Sequence record: KP869102
Length of the DNA stretch: 64,000 bases
Source: Escherichia coli O157 typing phage 4
Direction: 5' to 3' (one strand)
Of the stretch, positions 18,720-35,597 are shown piece by piece. The position numbers were made by a program, and so were the translations under genes. The first letter of the stretch is position 1, and each line of letters opens with the position of its first letter. The notes below the pieces were generated by a model that was given only the letters and a program-made list of their open reading frames with translations, did not search any database and was not told where the DNA came from.

Positions 18720-18762
18720 TGACACTTTAGACATACTGGTGACACAATATGACACTTTAGAC
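18720..18762. repeat. direct repeat, 2 x TGACACTTTAGAC
   Basis: Identical 13-mers at 18720-18732 and 18750-18762. Confidence 0.8.
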
Positions 18763-18779
18763 TTAATTGACATGCCTGA

Positions 18780-18956
18780 CTGTTTACGCTGTCACTATTC
18801 GCGCTATTACTATTCACTCCCTTTACTGTTCACGCTCTTACTGTTTACATGCTTAATGGTTTACATGCTTAATAGACTGCATGTCTAATAGTTTACATAG
18901 CTAACTGTTCACATACTTATCATTTACATGATTGACTGTTTACACAGAGATGATAA
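18780..18956. repeat. iteron-like array of TGTTTAC(A) motifs, including a tandem 16-bp unit
   Basis: (C)TGTTTAC at 18782, 18843, 18859, 18891, 18948 plus variants CATTTACAT, CTGTTCACAT, CTTTACTG; GTTTACATGCTTAATG twice in tandem at 18843-18874. Confidence 0.75.
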
Positions 18957-18963
18957 GCCATGA

Positions 18964-19234
18964 CATTCGTTTGCATGACAATAATTAACAAGATAACAAT
19001 TGACAAGCTAACAGCCAACAAGCTGACAATTAACTTGTTTACAATAGATGACATAATATAAAAGCAGGGCAACTATTAGAAGATCTATAGTTGCCTTGCT
19101 TGTTATGTCATGATTAACTAAATACAAGGCAACTATGATCTGATTAATAGTTTGCAAACAAACTATCACGGGGGTGATGGTTACTGCTTTTATATTATGT
19201 CGCGACTCCGTCGCGCCATGCCATTCGTTTGCAT
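18964..19234. repeat. 13-bp direct repeats CATTCGTTTGCAT bracketing the palindromic element
   Basis: Copies at 18964-18976 and 19222-19234. Confidence 0.8.
19050..19201. repeat. 152-bp element bounded by perfect 18-bp inverted repeats with nested palindromes (MITE-like or cruciform-forming)
   Basis: GACATAATATAAAAGCAG at 19050-19067 is the exact reverse complement of 19184-19201; internal inverted copies of AGGCAACTAT/ATAGTTGCCT and palindrome ATAGTTTG..CAAACTAT. Confidence 0.75.
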
Positions 19235-19850
19235 AGTTGCCTTATTGTTACAGATAAAATAATTGTATTGTTAATTATTTCTTATCTTTCTATTAGTCAT
19301 CTAATGATTCCAGTCAATATAGTAATGTACAGTAAACATTAGACGACTAAAGATTTATCTGCTTATAATAACTTACCGTGACAATTTCGGACTGTTTACG
19401 AAAAATGTTGGCACCTAAGCTGATTTATGTTATGCAGTTTACACGAATAATTATTTTATGCAGGTATTGACTATTCCATTATTCTATGGTTGGAATAAAT
19501 ACTTAGCAGACTATAGAATGGTGAGCGTACGTAAATTCTGAGATCTGGCGGCTATAGTTATACTCGATTTTTCACGTAGAGCACGCTTTTGTGGTTATGT
19601 AAGTGTATGACTTATAAAGATTTTTAGTTGTTGACAAGACACTGAAGATATGCATCAGGTTAAATTTTGTGCAATAGCTGCATTACGTGCAATTTTGGAA
19701 GGAAAAACGGGTAAAAATAGCCCTGCTACCACACAATGAAAAGTTATGCAATAGTTATTTTACATGTATATTTGTACAGTGTGTGGGGTTGATGGCTCGT
19801 CAATTATTCCACTTGCCAGGTAGGGCCGTTTATGGTAGGGGGAAGATCAG

Positions 19851-19876
19851 ACAAAAAGAAAGGGGCCTAAGCCCCT
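19851..19876 (-). terminator. intrinsic terminator
   Basis: Hairpin AGGGGC-CTAA-GCCCCT preceded on plus strand by an A-run (U-run on minus transcript), just downstream of the 19896 gene end. Confidence 0.55.
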
Positions 19877-19895
19877 TGATAATTCAGTTAAAAAA

Positions 19896-20315
19896 TTATA
19901 ATGATTCGTATATTTCAAAAATCCGATTTGCCAGGTCGTTACGGTACCGGAATTTTTCATCACGTTTGATCATAAGATCTTTATAGCCGTACTCTTTAAG
20001 CACTTCATTAACTTTATGGCGGCACACCTTCATATTATCCTGAGCGTCACCAATAAACCTGTTGCTATGGTGCATGGCTTTAATTTCTTCTTCCAGGACC
20101 AGGGCAACTATGCGGACCGGATCAAGCTGATAGGCGGTAACATCAATGCGGCATTGTAAACGGCTTTTTACGTCTGCCACCGGATATACTGCAACCTCTT
20201 CCCCGTCAACATTGACAATAATTAGTTTACCATCGATTTCGAATCCTTTCGCCGCCGGACCGTGACAAAAAGCGTTATCAAAGCTATATGCCGGATTATT
20301 AGATTTAATGTTCAT
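19896..20315 (-). CDS. hypothetical protein
   Basis: ORF track 139 aa; RBS GAGGTAAAAACACC before ATG. Confidence 0.5.
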   Translation of the reverse strand: MNIKSNNPAYSFDNAFCHGPAAKGFEIDGKLIIVNVDGEEVAVYPVADVKSRLQCRIDVTAYQLDPVRIVALVLEEEIKAMHHSNRFIGDAQDNMKVCRHKVNEVLKEYGYKDLMIKRDEKFRYRNDLANRIFEIYESL

Positions 20316-20354
20316 GGTGTTTTTACCTCTTAGTTAATTTTCTTACAACTTCCC

Positions 20355-20383
20355 TTTAAAAAAGAATATAGCAAAACTGCCGA
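20355..20383 (-). promoter_or_regulatory. sigma70-type promoter (TTGACA-17-TATATT on minus strand)
   Basis: Reverse complement gives TTGACA, 17-nt spacer, TATATT upstream of the 20315 start. Confidence 0.45.
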
Positions 20384-20460
20384 TCCTTGTCAATAAGGAT
20401 AGCATAATTTTTATGTGATCAAGGGGCTTTATTGCCCCCCTGACCATGTAACTTGTTGTA

Positions 20461-20724
20461 TTATTTGTTATTCATCCAGTTTTCCCAAGCTGCCTGATAA
20501 TCTGCTTCACTGCGGCGGATCTCTTCTTGCTCTTCAAGTCGGATCTCTTCTTCCAGGTACCCCAGGATATCGGCTTTTTTGGTCTGGCGTAACATCCAAT
20601 CATCTTTTTTACGGGTAAAGATCTTATATGCTTTCTCGCAAACCTCTTTTTTGCTACCTTTTTGGACTTCAAGAACTTTGTAGGCCATGTACTGAACTAG
20701 TTTGAGCTGATCAAGACGTTTCAT
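20461..20724 (-). CDS. hypothetical protein
   Basis: ORF track 87 aa; RBS AGAGGT; preferred over the overlapping 20472-20672 frame. Confidence 0.5.
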   Translation of the reverse strand: MKRLDQLKLVQYMAYKVLEVQKGSKKEVCEKAYKIFTRKKDDWMLRQTKKADILGYLEEEIRLEEQEEIRRSEADYQAAWENWMNNK

Positions 20725-20784
20725 GATGTTTACCTCTTTATGCGGTTCTGATTAGTGGGCCTTTTGGCCCGTGTCATTATCTTA

Positions 20785-21057
20785 TTACTTATGGCGGCAG
20801 AATTCAAGCGTTTTTAATTGATAATCTTCCTCAGCCTGGAGTACGACCGCCTCGATCATTTCGTTGGCATTGTTAAAGCCATAACCTTTAGCGAAATCAT
20901 CCGCGCCACCTTCGTGATCATGTTCTGCGTTCATCGCTTCCACAAAATGGAATTCCAAATTGTTGAGGTAGGGGCTTGATGTTCCGTCCTCTTTTTCGAT
21001 GAGATCCCAAATAGCATTAAAACGTGATTCTACTTCTTGATTAATCCAGCTTGACAC
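20785..21057 (-). CDS. hypothetical protein
   Basis: ORF track 90 aa. Confidence 0.5.
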   Translation of the reverse strand: MSSWINQEVESRFNAIWDLIEKEDGTSSPYLNNLEFHFVEAMNAEHDHEGGADDFAKGYGFNNANEMIEAVVLQAEEDYQLKTLEFCRHK

Positions 21058-21268
21058 AGTGTTTTCCTCTCTTCTGGTTGTTGTGTGGGCACTTTTGCCC
21101 CTTCAAGATAAATGTTACCCCACCCCATGGCAGATGTCAACGGTTTTTATAGTTCTTATATGACAGGCAGGCCCGGTGATTGTCTCCCCCCGTCGCCAGG
21201 TGCCTGCCGTGAAACAAGTATAACAAAAAACAGGACCATTGCAAGCCCTGTTTTGTAGTTTATAAATA

Positions 21269-21460
21269 TTATATTTTTTCGCCTATGTAGTCCGGTCGGT
21301 TTTTCTCTGTCATGCGCTTTAGCAATTCTTGCATGTTGCTTATGGCTTGTAGTGTATCCCCTTCCAGGCTTGAATCGACATAATCAGGATCGTCTATGAC
21401 CTTTCTATGATTATGATAACGCAGTACCGCCAATACCTTTCTGACTTGTTCGATATTCAT
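21269..21460 (-). CDS. hypothetical protein
   Basis: ORF track 63 aa. Confidence 0.45.
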   Translation of the reverse strand: MNIEQVRKVLAVLRYHNHRKVIDDPDYVDSSLEGDTLQAISNMQELLKRMTEKNRPDYIGEKI

Positions 21461-21472
21461 TTTTACCGCTCT

Positions 21473-21607
21473 TTAAAACAAGGTGCCAACCGTTTCCAAT
21501 AGATCACTGACTGCCAGGACAATACCGATCAGCACATATCTAACCATAAGGGGAAAGAGCGCCAATATTGCCACCACAATCCCCAAGGTGATAATTATCT
21601 TTCTCAT
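21473..21607 (-). CDS. hypothetical 44-aa membrane peptide
   Basis: Manual ORF MRKIIITLGIVVAILALFPLMVRYVLIGIVLAVSDLLETVGTLF; below the track length cutoff; abuts the upstream gene. Confidence 0.35.
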   Translation of the reverse strand: MRKIIITLGIVVAILALFPLMVRYVLIGIVLAVSDLLETVGTLF

Positions 21608-21609
21608 GG

Positions 21610-21903
21610 TTAACGGTTCACGTAAGTTTTCCCGTTCACGGTTATGGGCAGATCCTCCAGGTCTGGATCTTCCTTAAGGTCGCGAGCAAGCTCACCGCAC
21701 CGGATACCCTCGAATCCGTAGTACTCTGTTGTGCCGTCCTTAAAAGTTTTAGCGGCAAGGCATAAGCGATAAGTAACCCCGATTTGATTGACGGCATGAA
21801 TATCCGTTAGATTAACCTCTTTTGCCAGCTCTTTAGCCATTACAGGCGCATTAAGTCCAACAACCAGGGCAACCACTGCGATCATCTTTTTCATTGTGTC
21901 CAT
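21610..21903 (-). CDS. hypothetical secreted protein (N-terminal signal peptide)
   Basis: 97 aa; N-terminus MKKMIAVVALVVGLNAPVMA. Confidence 0.55.
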   Translation of the reverse strand: MDTMKKMIAVVALVVGLNAPVMAKELAKEVNLTDIHAVNQIGVTYRLCLAAKTFKDGTTEYYGFEGIRCGELARDLKEDPDLEDLPITVNGKTYVNR

Positions 21904-21985
21904 CCTCTTTCTGCTACGTTTAAGGCGGCGGTAACCGCCTGTTTATGCTTTGTTGGTTAATTTTCGGGTATAGGTATAAATTAAA

Positions 21986-22201
21986 CTATGCTGTACGCTC
22001 AACTATAACAACGGCTTGAGGGATCTCACCTTCAACCACTATCAAGGCTTTTTTCTGCGTGATAGATATCTTTACCCGCTTCAGCGTGGCGGTAAAATCT
22101 TTCATTTCGTCACGTGGTGTTTTAGTGCAATACCAGATCTCAGGCTTGCCGATCTGTAAGTTGCGTAAAAATTCTGTTTTGCCTGTTTTGTTAGTGATCA
22201 T
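21986..22201 (-). CDS. hypothetical protein
   Basis: ORF track 71 aa. Confidence 0.45.
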   Translation of the reverse strand: MITNKTGKTEFLRNLQIGKPEIWYCTKTPRDEMKDFTATLKRVKISITQKKALIVVEGEIPQAVVIVERTA

Positions 22202-22210
22202 TTGGCAACC

Positions 22211-22315
22211 TCACCCGATACCGTTGGAAGACAAGATCGCATTAGCCATGGTTGCAATCAGGCCAATACCCAGGGCAATAACCAAGATCACTGCATCGAT
22301 TAATTTCTGTTTCAT
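22211..22315 (-). CDS. hypothetical 34-aa membrane peptide
   Basis: Manual ORF MKQKLIDAVILVIALGIGLIATMANAILSSNGIG; weak RBS. Confidence 0.35.
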   Translation of the reverse strand: MKQKLIDAVILVIALGIGLIATMANAILSSNGIG

Positions 22316-22392
22316 GGTGTTTATTCTCTTCTGTTAGTAACCTTATTCATGGGGCCGCTACCACAGCCCCAAGGTAAGGCAGCTATGTGCTT

Positions 22393-22638
22393 TTAGTGTT
22401 TCATTCCAACCATCGCGGCACGGATCGCCGTAGTGCTGTACTTGAAGCCGTCCGGGGTCTTATCTTGTCCGGTTAGCTCCAGAAAAAGCATCATATCCCG
22501 CGCCGCATCATTACGATTAGCATTGGCGTTAATAAAGCCTTGGGCCAACCGGTACAATGACTCATCGTTATTAATCCAAAGGCTTACATTCCAATGAGTT
22601 TTGTTTTTGTAACCGTTATAACCTTTATTGCTTTTCAT
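22393..22638 (-). CDS. hypothetical protein
   Basis: ORF track 81 aa. Confidence 0.5.
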   Translation of the reverse strand: MKSNKGYNGYKNKTHWNVSLWINNDESLYRLAQGFINANANRNDAARDMMLFLELTGQDKTPDGFKYSTTAIRAAMVGMKH

Positions 22639-22729
22639 GGTGTTTACCTCTTCTTTGTTCCAGGTGGCGGATCATTCTACCACCTTATGTATTATGCTTT
22701 GTTAGATGGTTGTTTGTTGTCAAACTATT

Positions 22730-22909
22730 TTACCGATAATCATCATATGCTTTATTTACCTGGCGAATATAACATTCAAAAGCCAAATCAATAGATTTAT
22801 ATTCACGGATATACTCACCATAGGAAACCACATACATTTCTATAGCTTCCTCATATGCGAGGAGAATAGAATCTAAGCCTACGATCTCAGTCTTTGCAAT
22901 AATAGCCAT
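22730..22909 (-). CDS. hypothetical 59-aa protein
   Basis: Manual ORF MAIIAKTEIVGLDSILLAYEEAIEMYVV... with RBS AAGAGGA upstream. Confidence 0.45.
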   Translation of the reverse strand: MAIIAKTEIVGLDSILLAYEEAIEMYVVSYGEYIREYKSIDLAFECYIRQVNKAYDDYR

Positions 22910-22985
22910 GATTTTTTATCCTCTTTGTGGTTGGTGGGGTTCGTTGCCCCCTTTGATTTATATATTACAGTCTTATATGGTCATG

Positions 22986-23219
22986 TCAACTATTTTCAAA
23001 AAATTTTTCTGCTGTGATATTCTTCCCGGTAGGGTTCGCTACTTTCAAAATTTTATCATGCACTGGACGCCCAAAAGAATAAGCGCCGTACACAGTAAAC
23101 CAATAATCGCCGTCAGGTTGTACTATTACTGCCGCATATGGTACGCCTTTTTCGTTTTTGCTGACAAAATAGATCACGTTGCCATTAATAGCCTCGGCGC
23201 GTTTAATTTGTTCCATCAT
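22986..23219 (-). CDS. hypothetical protein
   Basis: ORF track 77 aa. Confidence 0.5.
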   Translation of the reverse strand: MMEQIKRAEAINGNVIYFVSKNEKGVPYAAVIVQPDGDYWFTVYGAYSFGRPVHDKILKVANPTGKNITAEKFFENS

Positions 23220-23275
23220 GATGATTTGCCTCTCTTTATTTTCATAATTGGGGGGCCTTTTCGGCCCCGCCAGGT

Positions 23276-23626
23276 TTATTTATTGATAGCGTGCAGCGGG
23301 AAAGGTACGCCAGGTTGATAGATAACCTTTACAACCTCATCAGGACAAAAGAAGTTGCAGAACTCACCGCAATAGGCCTCATCCTCTTTCAACTCTTCAT
23401 CAACATACTCAAAAAAGTAGTCGATGCTTGGATAATCTTGACCAGGGTTATAATCAACCATAGTGAGGACCAGTTCAAGATCATTGCGGATGATATGCAT
23501 ACCAGCTTTTAAATACTTCGCTTCCATTTTTACTACATCGCCAGCGGTAACAATAGCCATGGTTTTAACTCCTGTTTCTGTTAATGATTGGAGGCATAAC
23601 CCCCCTCGACAACTCTTATTATCCAT
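23276..23626 (-). CDS. hypothetical protein
   Basis: ORF track 116 aa. Confidence 0.5.
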   Translation of the reverse strand: MDNKSCRGGLCLQSLTETGVKTMAIVTAGDVVKMEAKYLKAGMHIIRNDLELVLTMVDYNPGQDYPSIDYFFEYVDEELKEDEAYCGEFCNFFCPDEVVKVIYQPGVPFPLHAINK

Positions 23627-23785
23627 ATTGTAGGGCTTGATGCAAGTACTTCTTTAAAAAATTTTTAAGTGCCTTGGAGGCCGCTGTAACGCCAAAATAA
23701 TAAAGGCCATGCAACCGCATAGCCTTTATGTGATTATATCGCTGCAGGCCCTGCTAGGGGCCTTATTTTGCATCATTTGCCGGAA

Positions 23786-24094
23786 CTATACAGAGAAAAC
23801 ATCGTTCACAATAGCGATCACAATGCCGCCCACCTTGTCACGGTCAACAATGCACAAATCACCATAGATCATGTGGTAGTCTGGATGATCTTTCACGGAA
23901 TAGTCAATGAGCGTTTTCTTGTCGTCCAGCTTTGTAACTTCCATTCTCATAACGATATGAGAATCATCAAAGGCATTATTCCGAAAAGTCATAGCCTGAC
24001 CACCAGGGCACCCAGTGATCTCCACTTCCACACCGTCTACGATCTGACCATCAAAGAAATAAAGATTATTAGCCAGGATAAACATGTTTATCAC
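23786..24094 (-). CDS. hypothetical protein
   Basis: ORF track 102 aa. Confidence 0.5.
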   Translation of the reverse strand: MINMFILANNLYFFDGQIVDGVEVEITGCPGGQAMTFRNNAFDDSHIVMRMEVTKLDDKKTLIDYSVKDHPDYHMIYGDLCIVDRDKVGGIVIAIVNDVFSV

Positions 24095-24177
24095 TCCTTG
24101 TTAACTGCGTGTTATTTTACCACGATTAAAATTTACTTTACTGATGGCCCTGGCGTCAAGGCCATCTAAAAATAAAT

Positions 24178-24378
24178 TTACAGGCCTACAATCTCTTTGA
24201 TTCGTTTAACTGCTGCCTCAGCGCCTTGGGGGTAGAAATTATGGTAACCGATCACGCGAGTGATACTAATCGCAGTTTGATGATCTTCATAATAGCCCTT
24301 GAAGATTTCTTGACCGTCAATCAGCACGGCAATTTTTTCTTCTTTTTTGAAGTTAATAACGCGGATATTGTTGCTCAT
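24178..24378 (-). CDS. hypothetical protein
   Basis: ORF track 66 aa. Confidence 0.45.
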   Translation of the reverse strand: MSNNIRVINFKKEEKIAVLIDGQEIFKGYYEDHQTAISITRVIGYHNFYPQGAEAAVKRIKEIVGL

Positions 24379-24493
24379 TTTGTTTCTCCTTTCTGGTTTT
24401 TGTGTTGGTGGGGATTAGCTCCCCGTTGATTATTATTATCCATATTTCGGACCGGATTGCAACACCCCGGAAGAAAAATTTTTTGAAAAAGTT

Positions 24494-24517
24494 AGGCCCC
24501 CAGGGATCGGGGGCCGT
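24494..24517 (-). terminator. intrinsic terminator
   Basis: Hairpin GGCCCCC-AGGGATC-GGGGGCC preceded on plus strand by an A-rich run. Confidence 0.5.
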
Positions 24518-24519
24518 TA

Positions 24520-24639
24520 TCAGTTACTTACAGCGATAAAATACATCCCTACGCCTAACAATATTTCAAGGGCGATGATCTCAAGCCATACCATAACCCG
24601 GCGCACCTTATCGGTGCGGGGCTTATCCTTGGTTGTCAT
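24520..24639 (-). CDS. hypothetical 39-aa membrane peptide
   Basis: Manual ORF MTTKDKPRTDKVRRVMVWLEIIALEILLGVGMYFIAVSN; strong RBS AGGGGGAGA. Confidence 0.45.
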   Translation of the reverse strand: MTTKDKPRTDKVRRVMVWLEIIALEILLGVGMYFIAVSN

Positions 24640-24881
24640 CGTCTCCCCCTTTCATCCTGGTAGTAGTGACGTGGTTTACAATGGCCCCCAGGAGTACCAT
24701 CACCACGCACATCACAAGAAAAATTATCTCTGTCGTTGTTCGATCCATTGTTATAAAATTCCTTAAGATCAGGCCTGAAAATAAAGCGTTCGTTATTGAA
24801 TCCATCACGCCAGGCGGCTGGCTTCAAATCTTCATCAAAGGGATTAATTAACGTGGTATTATTTAAACGGCTGGCCCACAT
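24636..24881 (-). CDS. hypothetical low-complexity protein
   Basis: ATG at 24881 with GAGAGGAA RBS; preferred over the RBS-less overlapping frame 24623-24808. Confidence 0.4.
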   Translation of the reverse strand: MWASRLNNTTLINPFDEDLKPAAWRDGFNNERFIFRPDLKEFYNNGSNNDRDNFSCDVRGDGTPGGHCKPRHYYQDERGRR

Positions 24882-25263
24882 ATTTTCTATTCCTCTCAAA
24901 TAGGCGATCCGCCTCAGTTAAACAAATCTCATGGGCGTGATCTCTGGTTTTAGCTTCATCGAAAACCTGTTGTGCAAGGCTGCAGCGTAGGGAGACTGGA
25001 AGATCACTATAATAGGCGTTGACAAATGTTTGCGCGTCATACAGGTCGGAAAATACTTTACCCTTTCTATTATCGCCTTTGTCAACAATTGCAAGGATAA
25101 CAAGTACAATAGTTGCAACCACCCCCAGGAAAATAGATATAATAAACCATAAAAAGGCGGATCTACCCATCTTGCCAGCGATCCAGGCGTTAAACAAGGC
25201 AACTAATACGGCCAAAATAATAAATTCCATTCTATGTACCTCTTTTGCAGTTCTGTTTAACAA
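24859..25263 (-). CDS. hypothetical membrane protein
   Basis: 134 aa; two hydrophobic helices (FIILAVLVALFNAWIAG and FLWFIISIFLGVVATIVLVILAIV). Confidence 0.5.
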   Translation of the reverse strand: MLNRTAKEVHRMEFIILAVLVALFNAWIAGKMGRSAFLWFIISIFLGVVATIVLVILAIVDKGDNRKGKVFSDLYDAQTFVNAYYSDLPVSLRCSLAQQVFDEAKTRDHAHEICLTEADRLFERNRKYVGQPFK

Positions 25264-25294
25264 TAAGGCGGCAAATATGCCGCCTGTTACCTGA

Positions 25295-25675
25295 TTAAAA
25301 ATTATCGCCGTAAATCTTTCCGCTTTCTGCCCACACCACCACGCGGGGCATACTATCCCACACGTCTTGTTTTAGATTGAGCGCGTGCAATTCTTCGGTG
25401 GTGCCCATACCAGGCACGGGCTGATTGTATACTGCAAAACGACCACCTGCATAATCATAGGCCAGGGTTAAATCACACTGAATCATCTTTTTGATCATGG
25501 CGTTGAGCATAGCGTTAGCCGCATACTGGTCACGTTTTAAAGGCAACTCTTTGATTAGTTTGCGATAGTTTTCAATGTGATCGCACACTGTTTCACGTGG
25601 AAGATCTTTCATATCCTCGCGAAAGGTAACCAGGTTAAACATAACGGTGTCAATAGCTTTAGTAGTGTTTTTCAT
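25295..25675 (-). CDS. hypothetical protein
   Basis: ORF track 126 aa. Confidence 0.5.
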   Translation of the reverse strand: MKNTTKAIDTVMFNLVTFREDMKDLPRETVCDHIENYRKLIKELPLKRDQYAANAMLNAMIKKMIQCDLTLAYDYAGGRFAVYNQPVPGMGTTEELHALNLKQDVWDSMPRVVVWAESGKIYGDNF

Positions 25676-25766
25676 AATGTTTTCCTCTTTGTTTTGTGTG
25701 GGGCAAACGTCTTGCCCCCCCTTGAGTTTTAATATAGCAAGTTTTTAGATTATTGCAACACTTTAT

Positions 25767-26295
25767 TTATGAAAAACTCATCTCTCCATATTCATCCACA
25801 TCAAACCGCCAATCATTGGCCTCAATAAGGCCGATCAGGTTTTCGGTAGTGAACTGTTCTAGATAGGCCTCCTCCAGGTCTACGTAAACCTTGCGGGATA
25901 GCTCCCGTACCGTCTCGGTGATCAGCTCTTCCAGGTCTTCCACTTTGTTTTCTTGTTTGGCGGTCAGATCTAGCCAGGTGGTATCAATGTATCCGCTTAC
26001 AGTGTTTTCATGGCTGTAATGGCTGTACTTGTCGCGTTCAATACTGGCTGATAACTCGCCATCGTGCATTGTGCCAAACAAGTGACGAATTGATCGGAAC
26101 TTGGTCAGGGCCTTTACTTTACGCAAGAATTTTTCTAAATCCACGTTTTCAGCACTGATTGACGCGCCGTCACCCTGGCACCAAAAGCCGGACCAATGTA
26201 CATCGGTATCTTCAAGGCCGTACTCTGGAAAAACTTGCTCTTTATAATATTCAATTACACTTTCTGCGAAAAAATCCTCTCCGCTGTGTTCTTCT
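25767..26295 (-). CDS. hypothetical protein, N-terminus cut off by the assembly gap
   Basis: Track reports 125 aa from an internal GTG, but the frame stays open upstream to the N-run at 26296. Confidence 0.5.
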
Positions 26296-26305
26296 NNNNN
26301 NNNNN
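26296..26305. other. assembly gap (N10)
   Basis: Run of 10 N. Confidence 0.95.
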
Positions 26306-26448
26306 CTTCTTCTCAAGTTCTGCACGGCGGTCTCGTGCTTCTTTACGGGTTTTGAAATGTTCGTAGATGAAAATCATCTTGGTCTCCTTATTTGATGTTA
26401 TTCTTTGTATCGATCAGTTCACGGTATTCAATCATAGCAGGAGTGTCC
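26306..26448. repeat. exact 143-bp copy of 15977-16119 (contig-end overlap)
   Basis: Identical sequence by eye; contains the start of the 14842-16047 gene and the stop of the rIIA-like gene. Confidence 0.85.
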
Positions 26449-28370
26449 CGATATTTCAAGCCCACATGCTTCAAAAGTGGATATTTCTTTTCCAATCTTG
26501 CAATATAGGCCTTCCCGCACTTAACCCGGTTGGCGATTAAGATTTTGGCACGATGATTTAGCTCACTGTGCTTCCACGCGGTGTTACCTTCCCACTTGTG
26601 GAAATGTGGCCGATAATTTCCAAAATCCTGCATGGGGATAATTTTCCCTAATTGTCTATACAGGCTGTCATATGAAGTTTCATTTGCTGCGCGAGTCAGT
26701 AAGAATTTCCAGGCGTCCTCTTTCAACAAATGTTCCACATTTTTCTCTGTAACATACTGGCAATCAGGATTAGTCCAAAGCAGACGGGATTCTGATACCA
26801 GGTACAGGTCTTCCCCTTCAGGAATCTGGAGTGCCGCACGCACACGGTCATAATTTTGCTGGTAGATGTTACTCAGCTGTCCCAGCCAACAACTTCCACG
26901 TTGGATATCACCCTCATAAGGAATGCAGTGCTTAATCTTCTTGAACTCTGCCTTAGTAATACGTTCACGGCGGAAGTAACCATCCTTCTCAAGCTTTTTA
27001 ACCCAATAACCTGGCTCGTAATGAGTTTTTGTTTCACCTTTCTTCGCAGGTCGGCGAGGGAGCTCTGATAACAATTTGACCGTATCTGCAAAGAACGGGT
27101 GGTGTGCCGCTTCTTTAAACTCTTCCACCAGATCCGTGTTACGGCAATAGAAAACGTTGCGTCCGGTGATCTCGCTTAAGTAGTTACATTTATTTCGGTT
27201 ATATTTGCCGTCTCCGTCGTTAAATACAAGGTATACACCTCGTAAGAACTCCGACTTTCCGTAACGAGCATAGCCTATGCGGCCTTTATTTAAGCCGCCA
27301 GCGAAAATTTCACAATCGCCTAAGTCGCCAAGCCCTGTTTCTTCCCAACGGTTCCACATAAAGTTTTTGCCGAAGATGTGTCCGAACACCCCACTATTCT
27401 TCATCATTTCACGTGCTTCTGCTGAGGTTTTTGCCGTCTCCAGTTCTGCAACAACTTCTGCCCCGCGAAGACGTATACCTTCTTTAACAAAGGCCTCCAG
27501 GCGATCCTGGAATCCACCGTCGTCATGGCCCTCTATGGTCCATTCACGCCCAGGGTTAATATTGCAATCCCCGATAGGAATTTCCACGCAGATTGCAGGG
27601 TAATCGGTCAATGTCTCCAGGAACTTAGAGCGGTAAGGTTGGTGACCCATCACAACACGGCTCTCATCAGAACTGGTATAACCTTTCAGGATGGTCATTT
27701 TCCAGCCATCCTTCTCGTAATGATACTGTGCCTCAACCTTGTCACCTTCTAACATCTTACTGGTCATGGGATCGGTGACGGTGAACGGAAACTTCGCATA
27801 GCGTAAGCACGATGCAATAGCAGTGCGATATTTCAGGACATGCTCTTTCTTAACATGAAACTGAACTTTTACCCCGTTGTGCTCTTCAGTCTTCCGCTCG
27901 CGGATCTTGGTAACGTTTGGGATACCCTGATCCAAGAACAATAGATATGTGCTTTCAACACCATTGTGCACACTGATAACATCGAAAGTGTCCACCATGC
28001 TGAACGGAGCCTTTGAACCAACACCTTTATTACCTACCAGAGCATTACTGTTGCGCTTGGTTGACTCTCCAAGGTTCATGAACGTGTTGCGGACCATCTC
28101 TTCTGACATGCCCAATCCAACGTCCTGCACAAAGAAGTATGGTTCAAGGTCTGTAGGAGAGTGAATGATGATCGGTACATCACCCCGTCCAGACTCAACA
28201 TGGGAGTCTACAGCGTTGAAGATTGGTTCACGGCAGCTTGCCAGCACCTTATCTTCGTAAATCCCTTTAATAATTAGCCCAAAAGTCTCTTTGTTCAGAG
28301 AAATTGAGCCCCTGGTGACCTCCATATTTCCGGTTAGCACTGCTTTAGTTTCATTACTGTTTACAATCAT
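26388..28370 (-). CDS. rIIA: rIIA-like protein with N-terminal GHKL-type ATPase domain
   Basis: 660 aa; GHKL N-box REPIFNAVDSH, G1 box QDVGLGMS, G2 box GNKGVGSKA. Confidence 0.7.
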   Translation of the reverse strand: MIVNSNETKAVLTGNMEVTRGSISLNKETFGLIIKGIYEDKVLASCREPIFNAVDSHVESGRGDVPIIIHSPTDLEPYFFVQDVGLGMSEEMVRNTFMNLGESTKRNSNALVGNKGVGSKAPFSMVDTFDVISVHNGVESTYLLFLDQGIPNVTKIRERKTEEHNGVKVQFHVKKEHVLKYRTAIASCLRYAKFPFTVTDPMTSKMLEGDKVEAQYHYEKDGWKMTILKGYTSSDESRVVMGHQPYRSKFLETLTDYPAICVEIPIGDCNINPGREWTIEGHDDGGFQDRLEAFVKEGIRLRGAEVVAELETAKTSAEAREMMKNSGVFGHIFGKNFMWNRWEETGLGDLGDCEIFAGGLNKGRIGYARYGKSEFLRGVYLVFNDGDGKYNRNKCNYLSEITGRNVFYCRNTDLVEEFKEAAHHPFFADTVKLLSELPRRPAKKGETKTHYEPGYWVKKLEKDGYFRRERITKAEFKKIKHCIPYEGDIQRGSCWLGQLSNIYQQNYDRVRAALQIPEGEDLYLVSESRLLWTNPDCQYVTEKNVEHLLKEDAWKFLLTRAANETSYDSLYRQLGKIIPMQDFGNYRPHFHKWEGNTAWKHSELNHRAKILIANRVKCGKAYIARLEKKYPLLKHVGLKYRDTPAMIEYRELIDTKNNIK

Positions 28371-29305: not shown

Positions 29306-30490
29306 TTAAGCTTTAGCCAAAATGGCGCTAAACTCTTCACCAAACTCTTTTACAATCTTCATCAGGTTTGGGTATGCTTTGATCAGCTGAGCAACAATCT
29401 TGTCACGACCTTTACCGATAAGCAAGGCATTTCCTAAGGCATTAGGTTTCATCATCGCCATAAAGACTGAGAATACAAAATCTCGGTTCTCGTCCTTGAA
29501 GTTTTCCCAAAGGAAATCGAGGAAGTTTGCCACACAGCTAACAAGATCTTCGTCGGAGATACTTGCATTTTCCATCATATTACGAATAGCGATACAACCT
29601 TCAGATCCAAGAATCCACAAGATGTCTGGCTGTTTAGGGCCTACGTATTCTTTGCAACCTCCTGCCATAATCCGACCGATTTCCGGTAAGTTGCGTTTCT
29701 TGGTGTGGTAAGTCCAGATCTCTACCGCTGCAGTGTGACCAATAGCACCTTGCAGAAGAACACGGGCCATAGCGTCAGAAATAATACCGCTGTCAAAATC
29801 GTGCAAGATATCAGATGCAGCAACCCAAGATCGCGGTGTGGCAAAAGATGGACAATTAATCTCAGCCATGGCCTCATAATTATCAATAGCTGATGGAACT
29901 CTTTTCAGATATCCAATTACAGAGGAGTGCACCCCATTAAGGAATGCGTAGTCCTCAATAAACACCTCTGCGTTGCTTGTAACTTCTACAATGATAAAGC
30001 GGTTAGCCAGAGGGGCTTCGAGCGCCGAAAGAACAGCACCATCTGTAGAACGGTTACCTGCAGCTACAAAAACAGAGCCCTTAGGGAATGCATAGGTGCC
30101 GCACTTGTGGTCGAGCATAATCTGCATTGCAACCTTTTGCAGGTAGTTATCTGCATGAGTGAGCTCATCCAGAAAGACAATTCCGCTCCAGTCAGGATCC
30201 GCAGGCCAAAATTCTGGGATTGCAAACACTGTACGTGTAGTCCCATCCGCTTCTACAGGGATAGGTAGCCCAGATAAGTCGGCAGGATCTTTATCTGACA
30301 GCCGCACGTCAACCAGGTTGTCATCTCGCTCACCGAACATATTATCAGCGATCTGCTTCATCACCTGACTCTTTCCCACACCCATTGGTCCTAAAATCAG
30401 GACAGATCGGTTATGACGCTGGGCAAACTGAATGATAGCTGGCAACTCACGGACAGTGATTTGACCACTTTCAAATACGTTTCTTGACAT
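29306..30490 (-). CDS. AAA+ ATPase, MoxR/AAA_5-like
   Basis: 394 aa; Walker A GPMGVGKS; Walker B IVFLDELTHA. Confidence 0.85.
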   Translation of the reverse strand: MSRNVFESGQITVRELPAIIQFAQRHNRSVLILGPMGVGKSQVMKQIADNMFGERDDNLVDVRLSDKDPADLSGLPIPVEADGTTRTVFAIPEFWPADPDWSGIVFLDELTHADNYLQKVAMQIMLDHKCGTYAFPKGSVFVAAGNRSTDGAVLSALEAPLANRFIIVEVTSNAEVFIEDYAFLNGVHSSVIGYLKRVPSAIDNYEAMAEINCPSFATPRSWVAASDILHDFDSGIISDAMARVLLQGAIGHTAAVEIWTYHTKKRNLPEIGRIMAGGCKEYVGPKQPDILWILGSEGCIAIRNMMENASISDEDLVSCVANFLDFLWENFKDENRDFVFSVFMAMMKPNALGNALLIGKGRDKIVAQLIKAYPNLMKIVKEFGEEFSAILAKA

Positions 30491-30792
30491 TAGTAAAAGT
30501 CCTCTACTTGTGTGTAAGTGTTTTCAAAGTTTTCCAAAACAGATGTCACATCGGATCTGTCAATATCGTACACAACTTCCCAGTTGTATGCAACCCTTTC
30601 TGCTGTCGCCTCTTCAGGACTTAGCCGCCTGCTGGGGTGAAAGAATGCTGGAGTGCATCTTCTTAGTTGTCTTCCGGTTTTTCCATAACAATATCTGTGG
30701 ATAGCTTTGTCAAAATTTAACTCTTTTTCTGCACAAAGTTCGTGTTTCTGGTATAACATGTTTATTACTCTTTTAAGTGGCATCCTTGCCAC
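30490..30792 (-). CDS. hypothetical protein
   Basis: ORF track 100 aa. Confidence 0.5.
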   Translation of the reverse strand: MARMPLKRVINMLYQKHELCAEKELNFDKAIHRYCYGKTGRQLRRCTPAFFHPSRRLSPEEATAERVAYNWEVVYDIDRSDVTSVLENFENTYTQVEDFY

Positions 30793-30798
30793 TACCTG

Positions 30799-31179
30799 CT
30801 AGAATACAGTCCGAATCCAGACAAGGTTCTTATCTGCCCAATCGTAGAGGCAAGTCATTGCGCTATTAAATTGCTCGCACGGAGGATAATCTTCTTCCAT
30901 CTGGCGCATAGCAGAGCCTTGTGGGTAAAGCTCTCGTGCTGCAAACCACGCATCGTAGTCATCCACGGTATCGAAGTAGTATACAACATCCTCCAACTCA
31001 GGATCGAACTTTGAATTATCAGGATCCAGTTGTTCAGGGAACTTGGAGCGTAACTTGCCAGCCACAATGCTTGCCAACTCGCTAACATGCTTATTGTCCC
31101 ACTCCACTAGTTTCCCGTCTTCAGTGATGCGTCCTAACCACTGATCATGAAGGTCAACTGTTGTCTTCCACCGTGCCAT
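30799..31179 (-). CDS. hypothetical protein
   Basis: ORF track 126 aa. Confidence 0.5.
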   Translation of the reverse strand: MARWKTTVDLHDQWLGRITEDGKLVEWDNKHVSELASIVAGKLRSKFPEQLDPDNSKFDPELEDVVYYFDTVDDYDAWFAARELYPQGSAMRQMEEDYPPCEQFNSAMTCLYDWADKNLVWIRTVF

Positions 31180-31181
31180 TA

Positions 31182-31439
31182 TCAGTCCACCTCTTCTTCT
31201 CGTTGTAGTTCAAGATACCCGTAGGTCTGGACATTTTGAAGGGTGTGGAACTCCCCCTCTGCCGCCAAGGCACGAACAACTTGGCACAAAACCTTATGAG
31301 GAACTTCATCCAGACCCAGATTCAGTGCAGGAAACACCTTATCTAAGTCAACAAAATAAACAAACTGTAGCTCACCAGCTTCAAAAGGTGTATCTTCAAT
31401 AAACATCTTCTCGGCATTAGTCAAGATCTGCACTTTCAT
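31182..31439 (-). CDS. hypothetical protein
   Basis: ORF track 85 aa. Confidence 0.5.
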   Translation of the reverse strand: MKVQILTNAEKMFIEDTPFEAGELQFVYFVDLDKVFPALNLGLDEVPHKVLCQVVRALAAEGEFHTLQNVQTYGYLELQREEEVD

Positions 31440-31816
31440 TATTCTACCTCCTCTTCTTTTTCTTCGACATTAGTTTCAGGGCTGCCCCACTCTGGAGTTT
31501 CAACCTCGATAGTAAACTCACGCACTACACGGTAATTACCCATGAAGCGCTCCACTTCGTCAAGGCTTACGGAGAAGCCATTGGCAACCAGGTCTGCAGC
31601 ACCCTCTTCTACCAGGTAGTCCAGATTGGCTTCCAGAGCTTCAGGCTCAAACCCTGTCAATGCAATCAGATAACCTTCCCCTTCATCAGGTAGGACAATA
31701 CAGCCCAACTGATTTTCTTTAAAAAGGCAGTGACCATCATTATTGATCGGGTGTTCATTGCAGTAAATAGCTGCACGATAAGTAACTTTAGACATAGGTA
31801 AGGCCTCCTTAGGCAA
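31439..31816 (-). CDS. hypothetical protein
   Basis: ORF track 125 aa. Confidence 0.5.
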   Translation of the reverse strand: MPKEALPMSKVTYRAAIYCNEHPINNDGHCLFKENQLGCIVLPDEGEGYLIALTGFEPEALEANLDYLVEEGAADLVANGFSVSLDEVERFMGNYRVVREFTIEVETPEWGSPETNVEEKEEEVE

Positions 31817-32087
31817 TTGTCATTTTACATTCTTGAAATTTTAACACAAGACGGTGATTGTGCCTAGTGTCTAAAAAGATTTTCTCAACCATCAGGCACA
31901 CGGTATAACCGTCCATCTTGTTGATAACAAAATCTCCAGGGTGAGGGAGGATGTCTCCCGGATTGGGGAAACATAGTCCACTCAGAAAGGCATCGTCAGT
32001 GGTGGACTTAATAGATTTCCACACACTGTCTGCCTGAACATGCTCACCGACGTAATATACATTACCACATGCCTTCATCATAGTCAA
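31809..32087 (-). CDS. hypothetical protein
   Basis: ORF track 92 aa. Confidence 0.5.
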   Translation of the reverse strand: MTMMKACGNVYYVGEHVQADSVWKSIKSTTDDAFLSGLCFPNPGDILPHPGDFVINKMDGYTVCLMVEKIFLDTRHNHRLVLKFQECKMTIA

Positions 32088-32983
32088 ATCCCCGCATAAA
32101 TTAAACTTGTATCAGTATACTTCTTTAACGGGTAAATATCCTGTCCGTAGATGTAGTCATTAAACACCTCATCTACCCAAAGACTGCATTTATACCCCAT
32201 CATTTCTAAAACACCCATCTCTTCATCAGTAAATTTATCACCACTTTTGCAGGATGTCAATACCTCATTTTGTACTCTTGCCAGTTCAAAAATGTTGTTA
32301 GCAATGTCACTATTAACGATCAGGTATTCACCTAAAGGGTGTGCGGCATTAAAGATGCACAGTGGGCGGTTGACGTAATAGTCCCCAGGTGTATAGAAAT
32401 TGTTGAGGTCCTTCACTAGAACATTCTTATCAGTCACTTCATTTATAACATCATGCATATCGCACATCTTTATGTGCTTGAGGATTCCATCCCCCATCAC
32501 AAAATAAAAACTTGCTGAGATACTCTCGGCATAGATCTTACTGGACCCGTTGTAGTTGTATTTTACGCGAATGCTCACGGGGGTTTTTCCTGTCGCGTTA
32601 GCCATCATCCAAAGGAACGGAAGTTCAAACTTCTCTTCTGAGGAAACAAAAGGTGAAGTTGCCAGAGATCGGAAACCTCCAGAAAAGTTGAAAGTCACAG
32701 AACCGCTCCGGCGGTATGATACCGCGTATTCTACTTTTATATCGACATACCCGTTGGAATAGGTGTGTCCTTCATTATCTAAATATGTCCACTTATCAGA
32801 CCCCGATACCAATCTACGCTCAATCACCTTCATCACTATAGGAATTAGCGGGTTGGTACAAACCGCTTTTGAAGTAGCTTTAGCATCTAAATCCTCGTAA
32901 ATTGCAGAAAGGATGTCTCCAGCTGAAAGATTGGTTGTTATATCCTGTTGCCACCGCGTACTAAAACTGTTAAGATTTGCCAT
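32084..32983 (-). CDS. hypothetical protein
   Basis: ORF track 299 aa. Confidence 0.55.
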   Translation of the reverse strand: MANLNSFSTRWQQDITTNLSAGDILSAIYEDLDAKATSKAVCTNPLIPIVMKVIERRLVSGSDKWTYLDNEGHTYSNGYVDIKVEYAVSYRRSGSVTFNFSGGFRSLATSPFVSSEEKFELPFLWMMANATGKTPVSIRVKYNYNGSSKIYAESISASFYFVMGDGILKHIKMCDMHDVINEVTDKNVLVKDLNNFYTPGDYYVNRPLCIFNAAHPLGEYLIVNSDIANNIFELARVQNEVLTSCKSGDKFTDEEMGVLEMMGYKCSLWVDEVFNDYIYGQDIYPLKKYTDTSLIYAGI

Positions 32984-33065
32984 GAGTGAGTGCTCCTATG
33001 TTAGTTTTCTTTCGAATGGGTGCACTATATCGGAGATTTAGAGTAAAGTCAACACGTTTTTGATG

Positions 33066-33094
33066 TTGACATCTGTTGAGACAATTGATAAGAT
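33066..33094 (+). promoter_or_regulatory. sigma70-type promoter (TTGACA-17-TAAGAT)
   Basis: -35 at 33066-33071, 17-nt spacer, -10 at 33089-33094; sits inside the track-predicted N-terminus of the next ORF. Confidence 0.45.
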
Positions 33095-33125
33095 TTCTTC
33101 ACTTACAGAGCACGAGAGACAACTC

Positions 33126-34103
33126 ATGAATCTTGAAAAATATTATACACCAGAAGAGTTAGAGCGCCTGCTCAAAAAATATAGACGCAAACAGAATAAT
33201 GCACGGAAACGAGATATAGAGTTCGACCTGTCGTGGGAAGAATACCTACTATTTGGTAAAAAACTTTTAGGGGAAGGGGTATGCGACTACACCCTTATAC
33301 CTTTCGACATGCACACAGATGAAAACGGACTGGGAAATCCTTTCTATCCATCTCTGGAGCGGATAGATGATGAAGGTCCTTACGCAATTGATAATTGTTG
33401 TGTGGTAGGGTTGAGGTGCAACGCTCTGAAGGACTGTCTGGTAGATAAAAAGACTGCAATCTTGATAAAAGACAAAACTGATCGAAAAATTGTCCAGCAG
33501 ATGATGCTCCACCTGAGCGAAGAGCGTATGGAGAAATTGAAAGGTGATTATACTTTTGAAGATTTCATCTTGCAATACGGGACAGAAGAAGATAAACTAG
33601 CACTTTTTGACGAAGAGGAAGAAGATATGTCACCAATGCAGGACTTTAAAAATTTCATGGCTGATCGTGCAGCCAACAAACACATTTCAGATATCGTAAA
33701 CGAAACTGTGACAGAAGAAATTGAAGAACAGAACTCTGAAGAGGAAAAAGAGCCTCAGGAGGTCGAAGAGGAGATTGCAGAAGAGGTTCCTGCACTGCCT
33801 GATGATGTTGAGGTTGCTAAGGCTTACACTTTCTATTGTCAAACGTTCTACGATGCAGGTATGAAAGTTGATCTGTCGTTCAGCCAATTTAAGAGTTCAT
33901 ATATTCGCAAATGCTGTGCTTTAACTGGTGAACGTCTCGGAGCTGGACTTAAACCGCTGTTGGTGACCGACTGGAATAAAGGTTTCACTAAAGGAAACTT
34001 TATGGTAGTATCTCCAATTATGGAAAAAGCCATGACAGATCTTATGAAGACCACTCGCATGACAATGACTGAGTTGGCAGGTATTTTCAAACACGTTAAA
34101 TAA
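33126..34103 (+). CDS. hypothetical protein with internal duplication, degenerate HNH-like motif and acidic linker
   Basis: Track ORF 33060-34103 (347 aa, TTG start); ATG at 33126 lies downstream of the promoter; the two halves resemble each other; HNH-like RIDDEGPYAIDNCCVVGLRCNALK; Glu-rich linker. Confidence 0.5.
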   Translation: MNLEKYYTPEELERLLKKYRRKQNNARKRDIEFDLSWEEYLLFGKKLLGEGVCDYTLIPFDMHTDENGLGNPFYPSLERIDDEGPYAIDNCCVVGLRCNALKDCLVDKKTAILIKDKTDRKIVQQMMLHLSEERMEKLKGDYTFEDFILQYGTEEDKLALFDEEEEDMSPMQDFKNFMADRAANKHISDIVNETVTEEIEEQNSEEEKEPQEVEEEIAEEVPALPDDVEVAKAYTFYCQTFYDAGMKVDLSFSQFKSSYIRKCCALTGERLGAGLKPLLVTDWNKGFTKGNFMVVSPIMEKAMTDLMKTTRMTMTELAGIFKHVK

Positions 34104-34107
34104 TGAC

Positions 34108-34124
34108 AGGGGCCAATGGCCCCT
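34108..34124 (+). other. GC-rich hairpin (AGGGGCC-AAT-GGCCCCT), no T-run
   Basis: Perfect 7-bp stem between the two plus-strand genes; overlaps the track start of the vWA ORF. Confidence 0.4.
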
Positions 34125-34136
34125 TCTGGAGTTTTA

Positions 34137-35597
34137 ATGGATAGCAGAAGTTCAGAAATCGTTGCCTCACAGAAAGATGATGCCCTGAGAATGTTGCAGG
34201 CTGCACGTATGTATCTCCTTGAAAAGCTGCCGTTTTATGGCACACTGCTGTCAGGGTTGCAGTTCGTAGAAAACCACACATGGTGCTCCACCATGGCAAC
34301 CGACCATAAACGCATCTATTACAGCCCTGAGTTCATTATGGGATTGGCTGATGAACGCAAGGCTATTCTTAAGGCTTCTCTAACTGACAAGCAGTTTGAG
34401 ATGGCTGAGGTTTTCTATTCCCCCAAATCTGTGAAAGAGGTGGCCTTTCTTCTGTCGCATGAGGTGGGGCATATTATCTGTGATCACCTGGTCCGTGGTA
34501 AAAGCTTTGAGCCGGAACTGTTCAATATTGCTTGTGATCACGTTATCAACACAGGCCTTGTGGTTGACTTTAGCAAACCTCCTTGTGTTTTCTTCTCGAA
34601 GGGGAAAAGCACTACGTTCGTGAAAGGTAAGCCTTTTGGCTTCTTAGCCAGCTGCTACTGCGACATGAAGTTTCATGGATGGATTGCTGAGAACGTCTAT
34701 GCAGTTCTTGATAAGCAAAGAGATCAGAATAACGGTAAAAGTAAGAGCGGTAAAGGTGAGAACTCTCAAGGAGATAAGCGACAAACCGATGATCACATGA
34801 GCGGGAACGGTGGCACCAGTGATGATCTTGGAAAGGCTATGGGGTATGATCAGCCACAACCTGTAATCAGCCAATCTGATAAAGATCAGGCCATGCAGGA
34901 CTCTGGTGACATGCTGGAGGCAGCAATGCAAGCTTCTGGAGGTCGTTGCCCTGAGGCGGTGCGTGAGTTTGTCAAGAATAGAGGTAAGCCTGTAATCAAT
35001 TATATAGACATCATCAAGCAACGCATGTTGTCTAAAAGAAAGGCCGAACTGACCTACAGAAAACCTGGTCGCCGATCTGGGTCTTTGACCAGCACAATGC
35101 GAAAAGTCGGAGCTATAAACAAGAACCAACACGTTATTGTTCCTGGTCGTAATCCGGAAAACACTATAGATATTGTGGTGGCTTTGGACGTTTCTGGTTC
35201 GATCTCTCAAAGAACTTTAAAGAAAATGTTCAATGAGATCACAGGATTGTGCAATCTGTATAAAGAGTTTAAGGTTACAATGTTCTGTTGGTCAACTGAG
35301 GTTGGAGAGGTTAAAGTATACACTCGCGGCAACATAGACGAGATGATCAACTATGAGGTACACTCAACATGGGGCACAACGGCTGCTTGCGTGTTCGAGT
35401 ATCTGGATGCCAACATACCGAATGCAAAAGATGTCATCGTCCTGACCGACCTATACTTTGAGCATAACTTTGAACAAAAGGCTGTTGACAACAAGTGGAA
35501 AAAGTACGATACTTTATGGGTTCTAACCGAAGGGTATAATAAAAATTATATCCCTAGCTTTGGTAAAACTGTGGAATTAATCGAGTACGCTAAGTAA
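34137..35597 (+). CDS. vWA-domain protein with N-terminal HExxH metallopeptidase-like domain
   Basis: Track ORF 34116-35597 (493 aa); HEVGHIICDH zinc-binding motif; vWA MIDAS motif VVALDVSGSI; second ATG at 34137 avoids the hairpin. Confidence 0.75.
   Translation: MDSRSSEIVASQKDDALRMLQAARMYLLEKLPFYGTLLSGLQFVENHTWCSTMATDHKRIYYSPEFIMGLADERKAILKASLTDKQFEMAEVFYSPKSVKEVAFLLSHEVGHIICDHLVRGKSFEPELFNIACDHVINTGLVVDFSKPPCVFFSKGKSTTFVKGKPFGFLASCYCDMKFHGWIAENVYAVLDKQRDQNNGKSKSGKGENSQGDKRQTDDHMSGNGGTSDDLGKAMGYDQPQPVISQSDKDQAMQDSGDMLEAAMQASGGRCPEAVREFVKNRGKPVINYIDIIKQRMLSKRKAELTYRKPGRRSGSLTSTMRKVGAINKNQHVIVPGRNPENTIDIVVALDVSGSISQRTLKKMFNEITGLCNLYKEFKVTMFCWSTEVGEVKVYTRGNIDEMINYEVHSTWGTTAACVFEYLDANIPNAKDVIVLTDLYFEHNFEQKAVDNKWKKYDTLWVLTEGYNKNYIPSFGKTVELIEYAK

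Follow-up and report, generated by a model that had tools for sequence, protein, structure and literature searches.

In the solved MoxR-VWA machines, one VWA adaptor serves each ATPase hexamer, a "finger" of the adaptor occupies the pore at the helix-2 insert, its MIDAS, an adhesion site that depends on a metal ion, binds an acidic patch of the target, and an ATP-driven twist stretches the linker to its N-terminal domain (PMC13036017, PMC9976466). In N4-like phages (Schitoviridae), the genes gp24 and gp25 are 2 of the 14 core genes; they are transcribed in the middle class and their function is listed as unknown (PMC4193335, PMC2784036). A pair made of a MoxR protein and a metallopeptidase fused to a von Willebrand factor A (vWA) domain is known from group 2.2 jumbo phages, where a role in virion assembly and processing has been proposed (Iyer et al. 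2021, Viruses 13:63, PMC7824862). Here we describe a pair of this kind in Escherichia coli O157 typing phage 4 (sequence record KP869102). The stretch analysed, hereafter the window, comprises 64,000 nucleotides and was identified by sequence comparison as an rV5-like coliphage of the genus Vequintavirus. The two genes, which we designate by their rV5 numbers, are the following:

29306..30490, minus strand: MoxR-class AAA+ ATPase, rV5 gp4 (N4 gp24 family), 394 amino acids; matches phrog_1297 at 2e-110
34137..35597, plus strand: DUF2201 protein, rV5 gp12 (N4 gp25 family), 486 amino acids, comprising an N-terminal zincin-like domain and a vWA domain with a disordered linker between them

Both proteins are homologous to the AAA ATPase gp24 and the vWA protein gp25 of N4, since tblastn returned records labelled "N4 gp24-like" and "N4 gp25-like". 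An initial annotation of the window had placed the two genes about 3.6 kb apart on opposite strands, and this proved accurate: their start codons point away from each other, 3,646 bp lie between them, and the strand switch is found at about 32984-33100. The pair itself is already a known kind. What is specific and new here is the reconstruction of its separation as a relocation that preserved co-regulation.

Conservation of the pair

The initial annotation had taken a MoxR gene lying next to its vWA partner as the usual arrangement and had noted that this pair is split, and a survey of viral loci bore this out. Retrieval by ATPase alignment yielded 80 IMG/VR loci, 71 of which were informative. 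The ATPase gene was followed by the DUF2201 gene, adjacent and on the same strand, in 68 of the 80 (68 of the 71 informative ones); nine loci ended right after the ATPase gene, two were split and one was unresolved. The median distance between the two stop codons was about 75 nt in the adjacent loci, and both genes lay within 6 kb of each other in 70 of the 71 informative loci. A linked vWA partner was also present in all nine GenBank phage lineages sampled, and in bacteria. The pairing of the ATPase with the DUF2201 protein is far beyond chance, and their co-occurrence across related genomes, which the annotation had proposed to check, is near-universal.

Klebsiella phage K64-1, Agrobacterium phage Atu_ph07, coliphage A73 and Acinetobacter phage ABPH49 carry the two genes next to each other; in LUZ7 and in an N4-genus phage one small open reading frame (ORF) separates them. 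Three small ORFs and a "homing endonuclease" lie between them in Pseudomonas phage Cassandra (7141-9901). The junction is a recurrent insertion site, as in Cassandra and in the IMG/VR locus L035. In the latter, the ATPase gene is followed by a radical-SAM-like ORF (CxxxCxxC, 2938-4004) and then by the contig end, and the locus was not counted as a partnerless ATPase.

The pair is also adjacent in the chromosomes of Sulfurivermis fontis and related Gammaproteobacteria. The bacterial neighbourhood is conserved: HtpG, Hsp15 and thioredoxin come first, then the AAA gene and the DUF2201 gene, with Lon (in one genome), ferrochelatase or peroxiredoxin nearby. A 370-amino-acid protein without domain matches often lies 3' of the bacterial pair. 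A scan of genome contigs returned 10 contigs of metagenome-assembled genomes, all with the phage-type subfamily, and was uninformative on cellular operons.

Pairwise divergences of the two proteins were correlated across the 71 loci (Mantel r = 0.969, with 0 of 999 permutations as high), a value expected for any two vertically co-inherited genes, which counters independent replacement and is no argument for physical interaction. The ATPase and the DUF2201 protein are strictly co-inherited. From gene neighbourhood and co-divergence, we conclude that gp4 and gp12 are a cognate pair. No flanking gene was conserved across lineages, and the recurrent neighbours elsewhere were genes of replication and nucleotide metabolism, encoding thymidylate synthase, helicase, DNA polymerase, RNA ligase and exonuclease.

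Domain content of gp4 and gp12

The motifs of gp4 were assessed in an alignment of 29 homologues and in an AlphaFold2 (AF2) model:

30368..30391, minus strand: Walker A, GPMGVGKS; G34, G37, G39, K40 and S41 invariant or nearly so in the 29 homologues
30164..30181, minus strand: Walker B, IVFLDE (D108, E109), invariant
30050..30055, minus strand: sensor-1 N146 and adjacent R147, invariant
30221..30268, minus strand: beta-hairpin after helix 2, residues 75-90, with AF2 strands at E75-81 and E84-90

The arginine finger and sensor-2 residues R164 and R220 were invariant, as was R147. A helix-2 insert is typical of the MoxR/dynein/midasin clade. The model (predicted local distance difference test, pLDDT, 85) also contains a short hairpin before sensor 1, at about residues 129-134, and an extra helical C-terminal extension of about 120 amino acids. 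Its best Foldseek matches in the PDB were NorQ, including NorQ-NorD VWA complexes, CbbQ2, cso-CbbQ and CHU_0153 (E about 5e-8), and the family profile matched the AAA modules of Midasin at 4e-9. Homologues at about 35% identity (E about 1e-45) carry matches to PF07726, PF07728 and PF20030 (AAA_3, AAA_5 and bpMoxR), some of them flagged weak, and it is through these homologues, by transitivity alone, that Pfam links the window ATPase to the MoxR class. Searches of the PDB with a single sequence recognised the P-loop or nothing, so that family profiles were required; a search of NCBIfam gave nothing useful. The homologues, the Midasin match, the invariant motifs and the predicted fold together identify gp4 as a MoxR-class AAA+ ATPase, as the initial annotation had proposed. 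The hairpin of the helix-2 insert presumably contacts a pore "finger" of the partner, as it does in NorQ (PMC13036017).

The reading of the second protein as a vWA protein with an N-terminal HEVGH metallopeptidase-like motif was likewise upheld by the domain searches. Pfam matched DUF2201_N ("putative metallopeptidase") at 1.9e-28 (100.3 bits against a threshold of 23.2) and DUF2201 ("VWA-like") at 3.5e-11 (43.7 bits against 26.4). Both domains of the DUF2201 family (PF13203 and PF09967) exceed the gathering score, in N-to-C order. In the AF2 model (pLDDT 82), a disordered stretch lies between a helical domain at the N terminus and an alpha/beta domain at the C terminus. The following features, all on the plus strand, were located with the help of an alignment of 32 homologues from phages and bacteria:

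34458..34487, plus strand: HEVGHIICDH, an HExxH(x4)H motif and putative zinc and catalytic site (HEVGH at 34458-34472); H115, E116, H119 and H124 invariant
34728..34865, plus strand: low-complexity linker of variable length, residues about 205-250; pLDDT below 50 at 211-234, gapped and variable alignment columns 290-400
35055..35075, plus strand: YRKPGRR motif ([YF]x[RK]PxRR); R319 and R320 kept in at least 90% of sequences
35187..35201, plus strand: MIDAS DxSGS motif, DVSGS, invariant
35373-35378 and 35445-35450, plus strand: remaining MIDAS residues, G420-T421 and T444-D445, invariant

D141 (34536-34538) was also invariant in the 32 sequences, and H124 (at +5) and D141 are candidates for the third metal ligand. 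The zincin-like region gave weak matches to Peptidase_M48 (0.0088), to the minigluzincin MJ1213 and to BepA. The YRKPGRR motif, which phage and bacterial members share, is placed after the linker and before the vWA core and is a candidate for the pore-inserting "finger" or for an autoprocessing or regulatory site. The MIDAS is complete, with D358, S360, G361, S362, T421, T444 and D445 invariant in all 32 sequences. The vWA domain has the Rossmann-like vWA fold, and the family profile matched an integrin I-domain at DxSGS (E = 4e-5).

We considered the possibility that the pair inserts a metal cofactor or activates an enzyme, as NorQD, CbbQO, CobST and BchID do. It would then remodel a phage or host metalloenzyme, for instance ribonucleotide reductase, and the HExxH motif would bind or deliver metal without cleaving peptides. 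The nearest solved structures of the ATPase, NorQ and CbbQ, do serve metal insertion or enzyme activation (PMC13036017), rV5 encodes both an aerobic and an anaerobic ribonucleotide reductase (PMC3606486), and the recurrent nucleotide-metabolism neighbours would fit a metalloenzyme activase. Yet no linkage to a particular metalloenzyme gene is conserved across lineages, in keeping with the lack of conserved flanking genes, and Pfam groups the N-terminal domain as a putative metallopeptidase. In zincin chemistry, the glutamate of HExxH is the catalytic base. Its invariance in gp12 is the signature of such a base, which simple metal storage does not need. We consider an activase function improbable, and regard "metallopeptidase" as a well-motivated prediction for the N-terminal domain of gp12.

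Relocation across a bidirectional promoter

Comparison of split and unsplit Vequintavirinae showed that the DUF2201 gene alone changes place. In the deeper relatives A73 and ABPH49, adjacency is retained. In ABPH49, the Srd-like gene is read away from a promoter region on one arm, and the other arm leads through further genes to the ATPase gene and then the DUF2201 gene. In Vequintavirus, Seunavirus SSE121 and Mydovirus Seu621, the first arm carries the Srd-like gene, zero to two small genes and then the DUF2201 gene, and the opposite arm leads through further genes to an orf6-like gene and then the ATPase gene. Since the Srd-like, orf6-like, ATPase, SleB and rIIA genes occupy the same places in split and unsplit genomes, the split is a derived relocation of a single gene, which occurred in the common ancestor of the three genera. 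Thus, one clade of Vequintavirinae (Vequintavirus, Seunavirus and Mydovirus) has put the DUF2201 gene on the opposite arm of a bidirectional promoter. In the window, the elements concerned are:

33024..33094, both strands: back-to-back sigma-70-type promoters found by promoter scan; leftward TTGACT-17-TATAGT, rightward TTGACA-17-TG-TAAGAT
33063..34103, plus strand: Srd-like "anti-sigma" gene, rV5 gp11 (phrog_3118, phrog_4592, phrog_1400); start codon uncertain

The DUF2201 gene lies directly downstream of the Srd-like gene. Bidirectional promoters have been reported for rV5 (PMC3606486), and those at the strand switch correspond to them. The presence of consensus sigma-70 promoters placed back to back at this position indicates that the relocated DUF2201 gene is still fired from the same control region as the ATPase gene.

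The separation raises the possibility that the two proteins became functionally decoupled and act independently in Vequintavirus. They are indeed encoded on opposite strands with nine genes between them, and in the rV5 record (DQ832317, 7756-9217) two overlapping ORFs, ORF12 and ORF13, stand in place of one DUF2201 gene, as a frameshift in that record would explain. Both ORFs match the family profile, and the interruption, which falls in the vWA part, looks like a frameshift or a sequencing error; the window and most relatives have an uninterrupted gene. Against decoupling, both genes have stayed full-length in the three split genera and keep every catalytic and MIDAS residue at identities of 43-53%, which implies long co-retention after the split. 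Moreover, their divergence rates are still matched (53/47% and 49/46% identity), the two arms have one bidirectional promoter region in common, and colinearity extends through the entire region in 114 Vequintavirus records. We therefore consider independent action very improbable, and retain the reading of gp4 and gp12 as partners.

The region of about 7 kb round the pair is 95-98% identical to about 120 sequenced rV5-like coliphages, among which are the 114 colinear records, at 90-99% identity. Its best matches were the MG0656xx records, at least 16 unannotated "Campylobacter phage" entries (host C. jejuni) that are 95-98% identical to E. coli Vequintaviruses here; their C. jejuni host labels look doubtful. 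The nine ORFs between the two genes include five small hypotheticals, the Srd-like gene and a 299-amino-acid ORF whose label, "fucosyltransferase", is without Pfam support. One small ORF adjoins the ATPase gene:

30490..30792, minus strand: small ORF, rV5 orf5; stop codon and ATPase start codon overlap in TAATG; doubtful as a member of the module

The overlap suggests translational coupling. As a third component of the module, orf5 was rejected: it has no Pfam domain and no homologue outside Vequintavirus, none being found in the Seunavirus or Mydovirus loci. It is labelled "ATPase" or "MoxR ATPase" in PHROGs and GenBank without domain support.

The start of the DUF2201 gene is almost certainly ATG 34137 rather than ATG 34116, because a GGAG Shine-Dalgarno sequence lies 7 nt upstream of the former and both database clusters and the GenBank annotation give 486 amino acids, whereas the latter falls inside a GC hairpin (34109-34123). 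This hairpin is a perfect GC-rich palindrome (GGGGCCAATGGCCCC) between the stop of the Srd-like gene and the start of the DUF2201 gene, and a tract containing T residues comes after it. It could act on read-through into the relocated gene as a partial terminator, an attenuator or an element of mRNA stability.

Database labels of these genes vary. The label "MoxR ATPase" for gene 4 of rV5 dates from the original record, in which ORF12/13 are "hypothetical"; later records use "metallopeptidase" or "VWA-like domain containing protein" for the second gene. The DUF2201 and Srd-like genes are both labelled "HNH endonuclease" in PHROGs (phrog_1314, phrog_3118) and RefSeq, and "DNA repair ATPase", "tail protein" and "anti-sigma factor" also occur for the DUF2201 gene. 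The endonuclease, repair, tail and anti-sigma labels look like propagated mis-annotations.

Elsewhere in the window, a block of about 10.19 kb (16120-26305) lies between rIIB (14842-16047) and rIIA (26388-28370). In reference Vequintaviruses, the same block is about 25 kb from rIIA (for example JES2013 101851-111695, 99.5% identity). A perfect 144-nt direct repeat flanks it (15976-16119 and 26306-26449), duplicating the junction of the rIIB start and the rIIA end, and neither block junction is spanned in any of the approximately 120 sequenced relatives. Either the genome was rearranged here recently or the assembly is chimeric.

Proposed function and comparison with known systems

We think it fairly probable that gp4 and gp12 are the two halves of one conserved machine for ATP-driven, MIDAS-targeted remodelling or proteolysis, which acts early or in the middle of infection and outside the virion. 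In this machine, gp4 would be a hexameric AAA+ motor and gp12 a single adaptor and effector, both genes being switched on together by the host RNA polymerase early in infection. By analogy with the solved machines NorQ-NorD, CbbQ-CbbO and Midasin, the vWA domain of gp12 would dock on the ATPase ring, the metal of the MIDAS would hold a particular target protein by an acidic residue, and ATP hydrolysis would, through the linker, twist the vWA domain against the N-terminal one. The HExxH module could then cleave or remodel the captured target in an ATP-gated manner. Such a device would be expected from the three-part plan of gp12, which is that of the solved MoxR-VWA adaptors with an HExxH module at the N terminus.

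As to the stage of infection, we infer an intracellular, non-virion role at the early or middle stage (replication or host takeover) from the sigma-70-driven early units, the middle expression in N4, the replication and nucleotide-metabolism neighbours, the virion proteome and the bacterial homologues. The main text of the mass-spectrometry study of the rV5 virion names neither gp4 nor gp12.

These observations bear on the alternative that the pair is a virion-assembly chaperone with a processing protease, folding or assembling structural proteins that the zincin domain trims. The proposal of an assembly role drew on an analogy with the Acidianus two-tailed virus, whose tail development requires MoxR/vWA proteins (PMC7824862). 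In K64-1, the pair comes after genes annotated as virion structural proteins and a head completion protein, and in roseophage RPP1 a "second structural module" is expressed in mid-infection near the gp24/gp25 homologues (PMC4193335). In the window, however, the pair stands in divergent early units beside the Srd-like gene, rIIA/B and SleB, far from the late morphogenesis block (genes 27-66). Its commonest neighbours elsewhere belong to replication and nucleotide metabolism, the chromosomal copies of bacteria have no virion to build, and the list of named rV5 virion proteins argues in the same direction. Assembly is therefore possible but unlikely, and we favour an intracellular machine.

Several points weigh against that machine. 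The window ATPase falls below every Pfam threshold (AAA_5 16.4 bits against 22, bpMoxR 15.8 against 27) and has no AAA_3 match. No solved peptidase matches the N-terminal domain of gp12 significantly in structure; taken with the weak M48 and minigluzincin links, this means that HExxH may bind metal rather than serve proteolysis. The early timing is deduced, for this phage, from where the genes lie and from matches to promoter consensus sequences, and the rV5 virion proteome is shallow, so that absence from it is weak evidence. The literature yielded no experimental data on any family member, no paper linking rV5 and MoxR, and nothing on these genes in the CRISPRi-ART paper, which covers the rV5-like phage EdH4 and N4. 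It is thus from sequence and analogy that we infer a physical complex, its ATPase and protease activities, its timing and its target.

A wider proposal is more speculative, and we consider it unlikely. According to it, bacteria and many lytic phages share, in the gp24/gp25-type module, a class of two-component AAA+ protease not recognised so far, in which a MoxR motor works with a MIDAS-guided zincin. In rV5-like phages it would have been rewired beside the Srd-like factor under one bidirectional early promoter, and would serve takeover by destroying or remodelling a particular host protein.

Few phage gene sets of unknown function are conserved as widely as this pair. It belongs to the core of all N4-like phages and is found in jumbo phages of the RaK2-like and Atu_ph07-like kinds, in Vequintavirinae and in many large phages that are uncultured, with chromosomal counterparts in bacteria. 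The present instance is an evolutionary detail, a relocation across a bidirectional promoter, and not a new system; the part worth pursuing is the function of a very widespread phage module. If the model of a protease with its motor is true, it would be a new design among ATP-dependent proteolytic machines. Because the two genes are physically separated yet co-retained in a tractable E. coli phage (rV5, EdH4), each can be perturbed alone without polar effects.

With respect to the systems already described, the N4-type pair has the same gene order, ATPase then vWA protein, and the family profiles match both genes in LUZ7 and in the N4-genus phage (1e-49 to 1e-78). The proteins are only 21-28% identical to those of the window, and in the N4-type pair the genes lie on the same strand with one small ORF between them, instead of 3.6 kb apart on opposite strands. 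The jumbo-phage pair of Iyer et al. belongs to the same two families and has the same architecture, and its examples from Atu_ph07, ASV44729.1 and ASV44728.2, are direct homologues of the window proteins. It is adjacent, whereas the window pair is split, and the window phage, of the 135-140 kb genome class, is not a jumbo phage. Furthermore, the authors of that study favour virion assembly, while the context in the window points to early or middle, non-virion expression.

The MoxR-vWA ternary conflict systems (Kaur et al. 2020, eLife 9:e52696) have in common with the window pair a MoxR and vWA core and an effector domain fused to the vWA protein. They differ by a third component (VMAP, iSTAND, FtsH or beta-propeller); the module of the window is carried by lytic phages and stands in housekeeping contexts in bacteria. 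Domain searches of the neighbours revealed none of these four domains, and PADLOC gave no defence-system match. Membership of the ternary systems was rejected, as there is no conserved third component, the bpMoxR match is below threshold and PADLOC was negative.

Finally, NorQ-NorD, CbbQ-CbbO, RavA-ViaA and Midasin show the same MoxR-class fold with a helix-2 insert as gp4, and adjacency is the rule among them. Like the partners in MoxR-VWA machines, gp12 combines an N-terminal domain with a C-terminal vWA domain that has a MIDAS, and the linker joining them is disordered. Unlike NorD, CbbO and ViaA, its N-terminal domain is a zincin-like HExxH module and its vWA domain is minimal (about 150 amino acids), while the helical C-terminal extension of about 120 amino acids sets gp4 apart from the characterised ATPases of MoxR-VWA machines.

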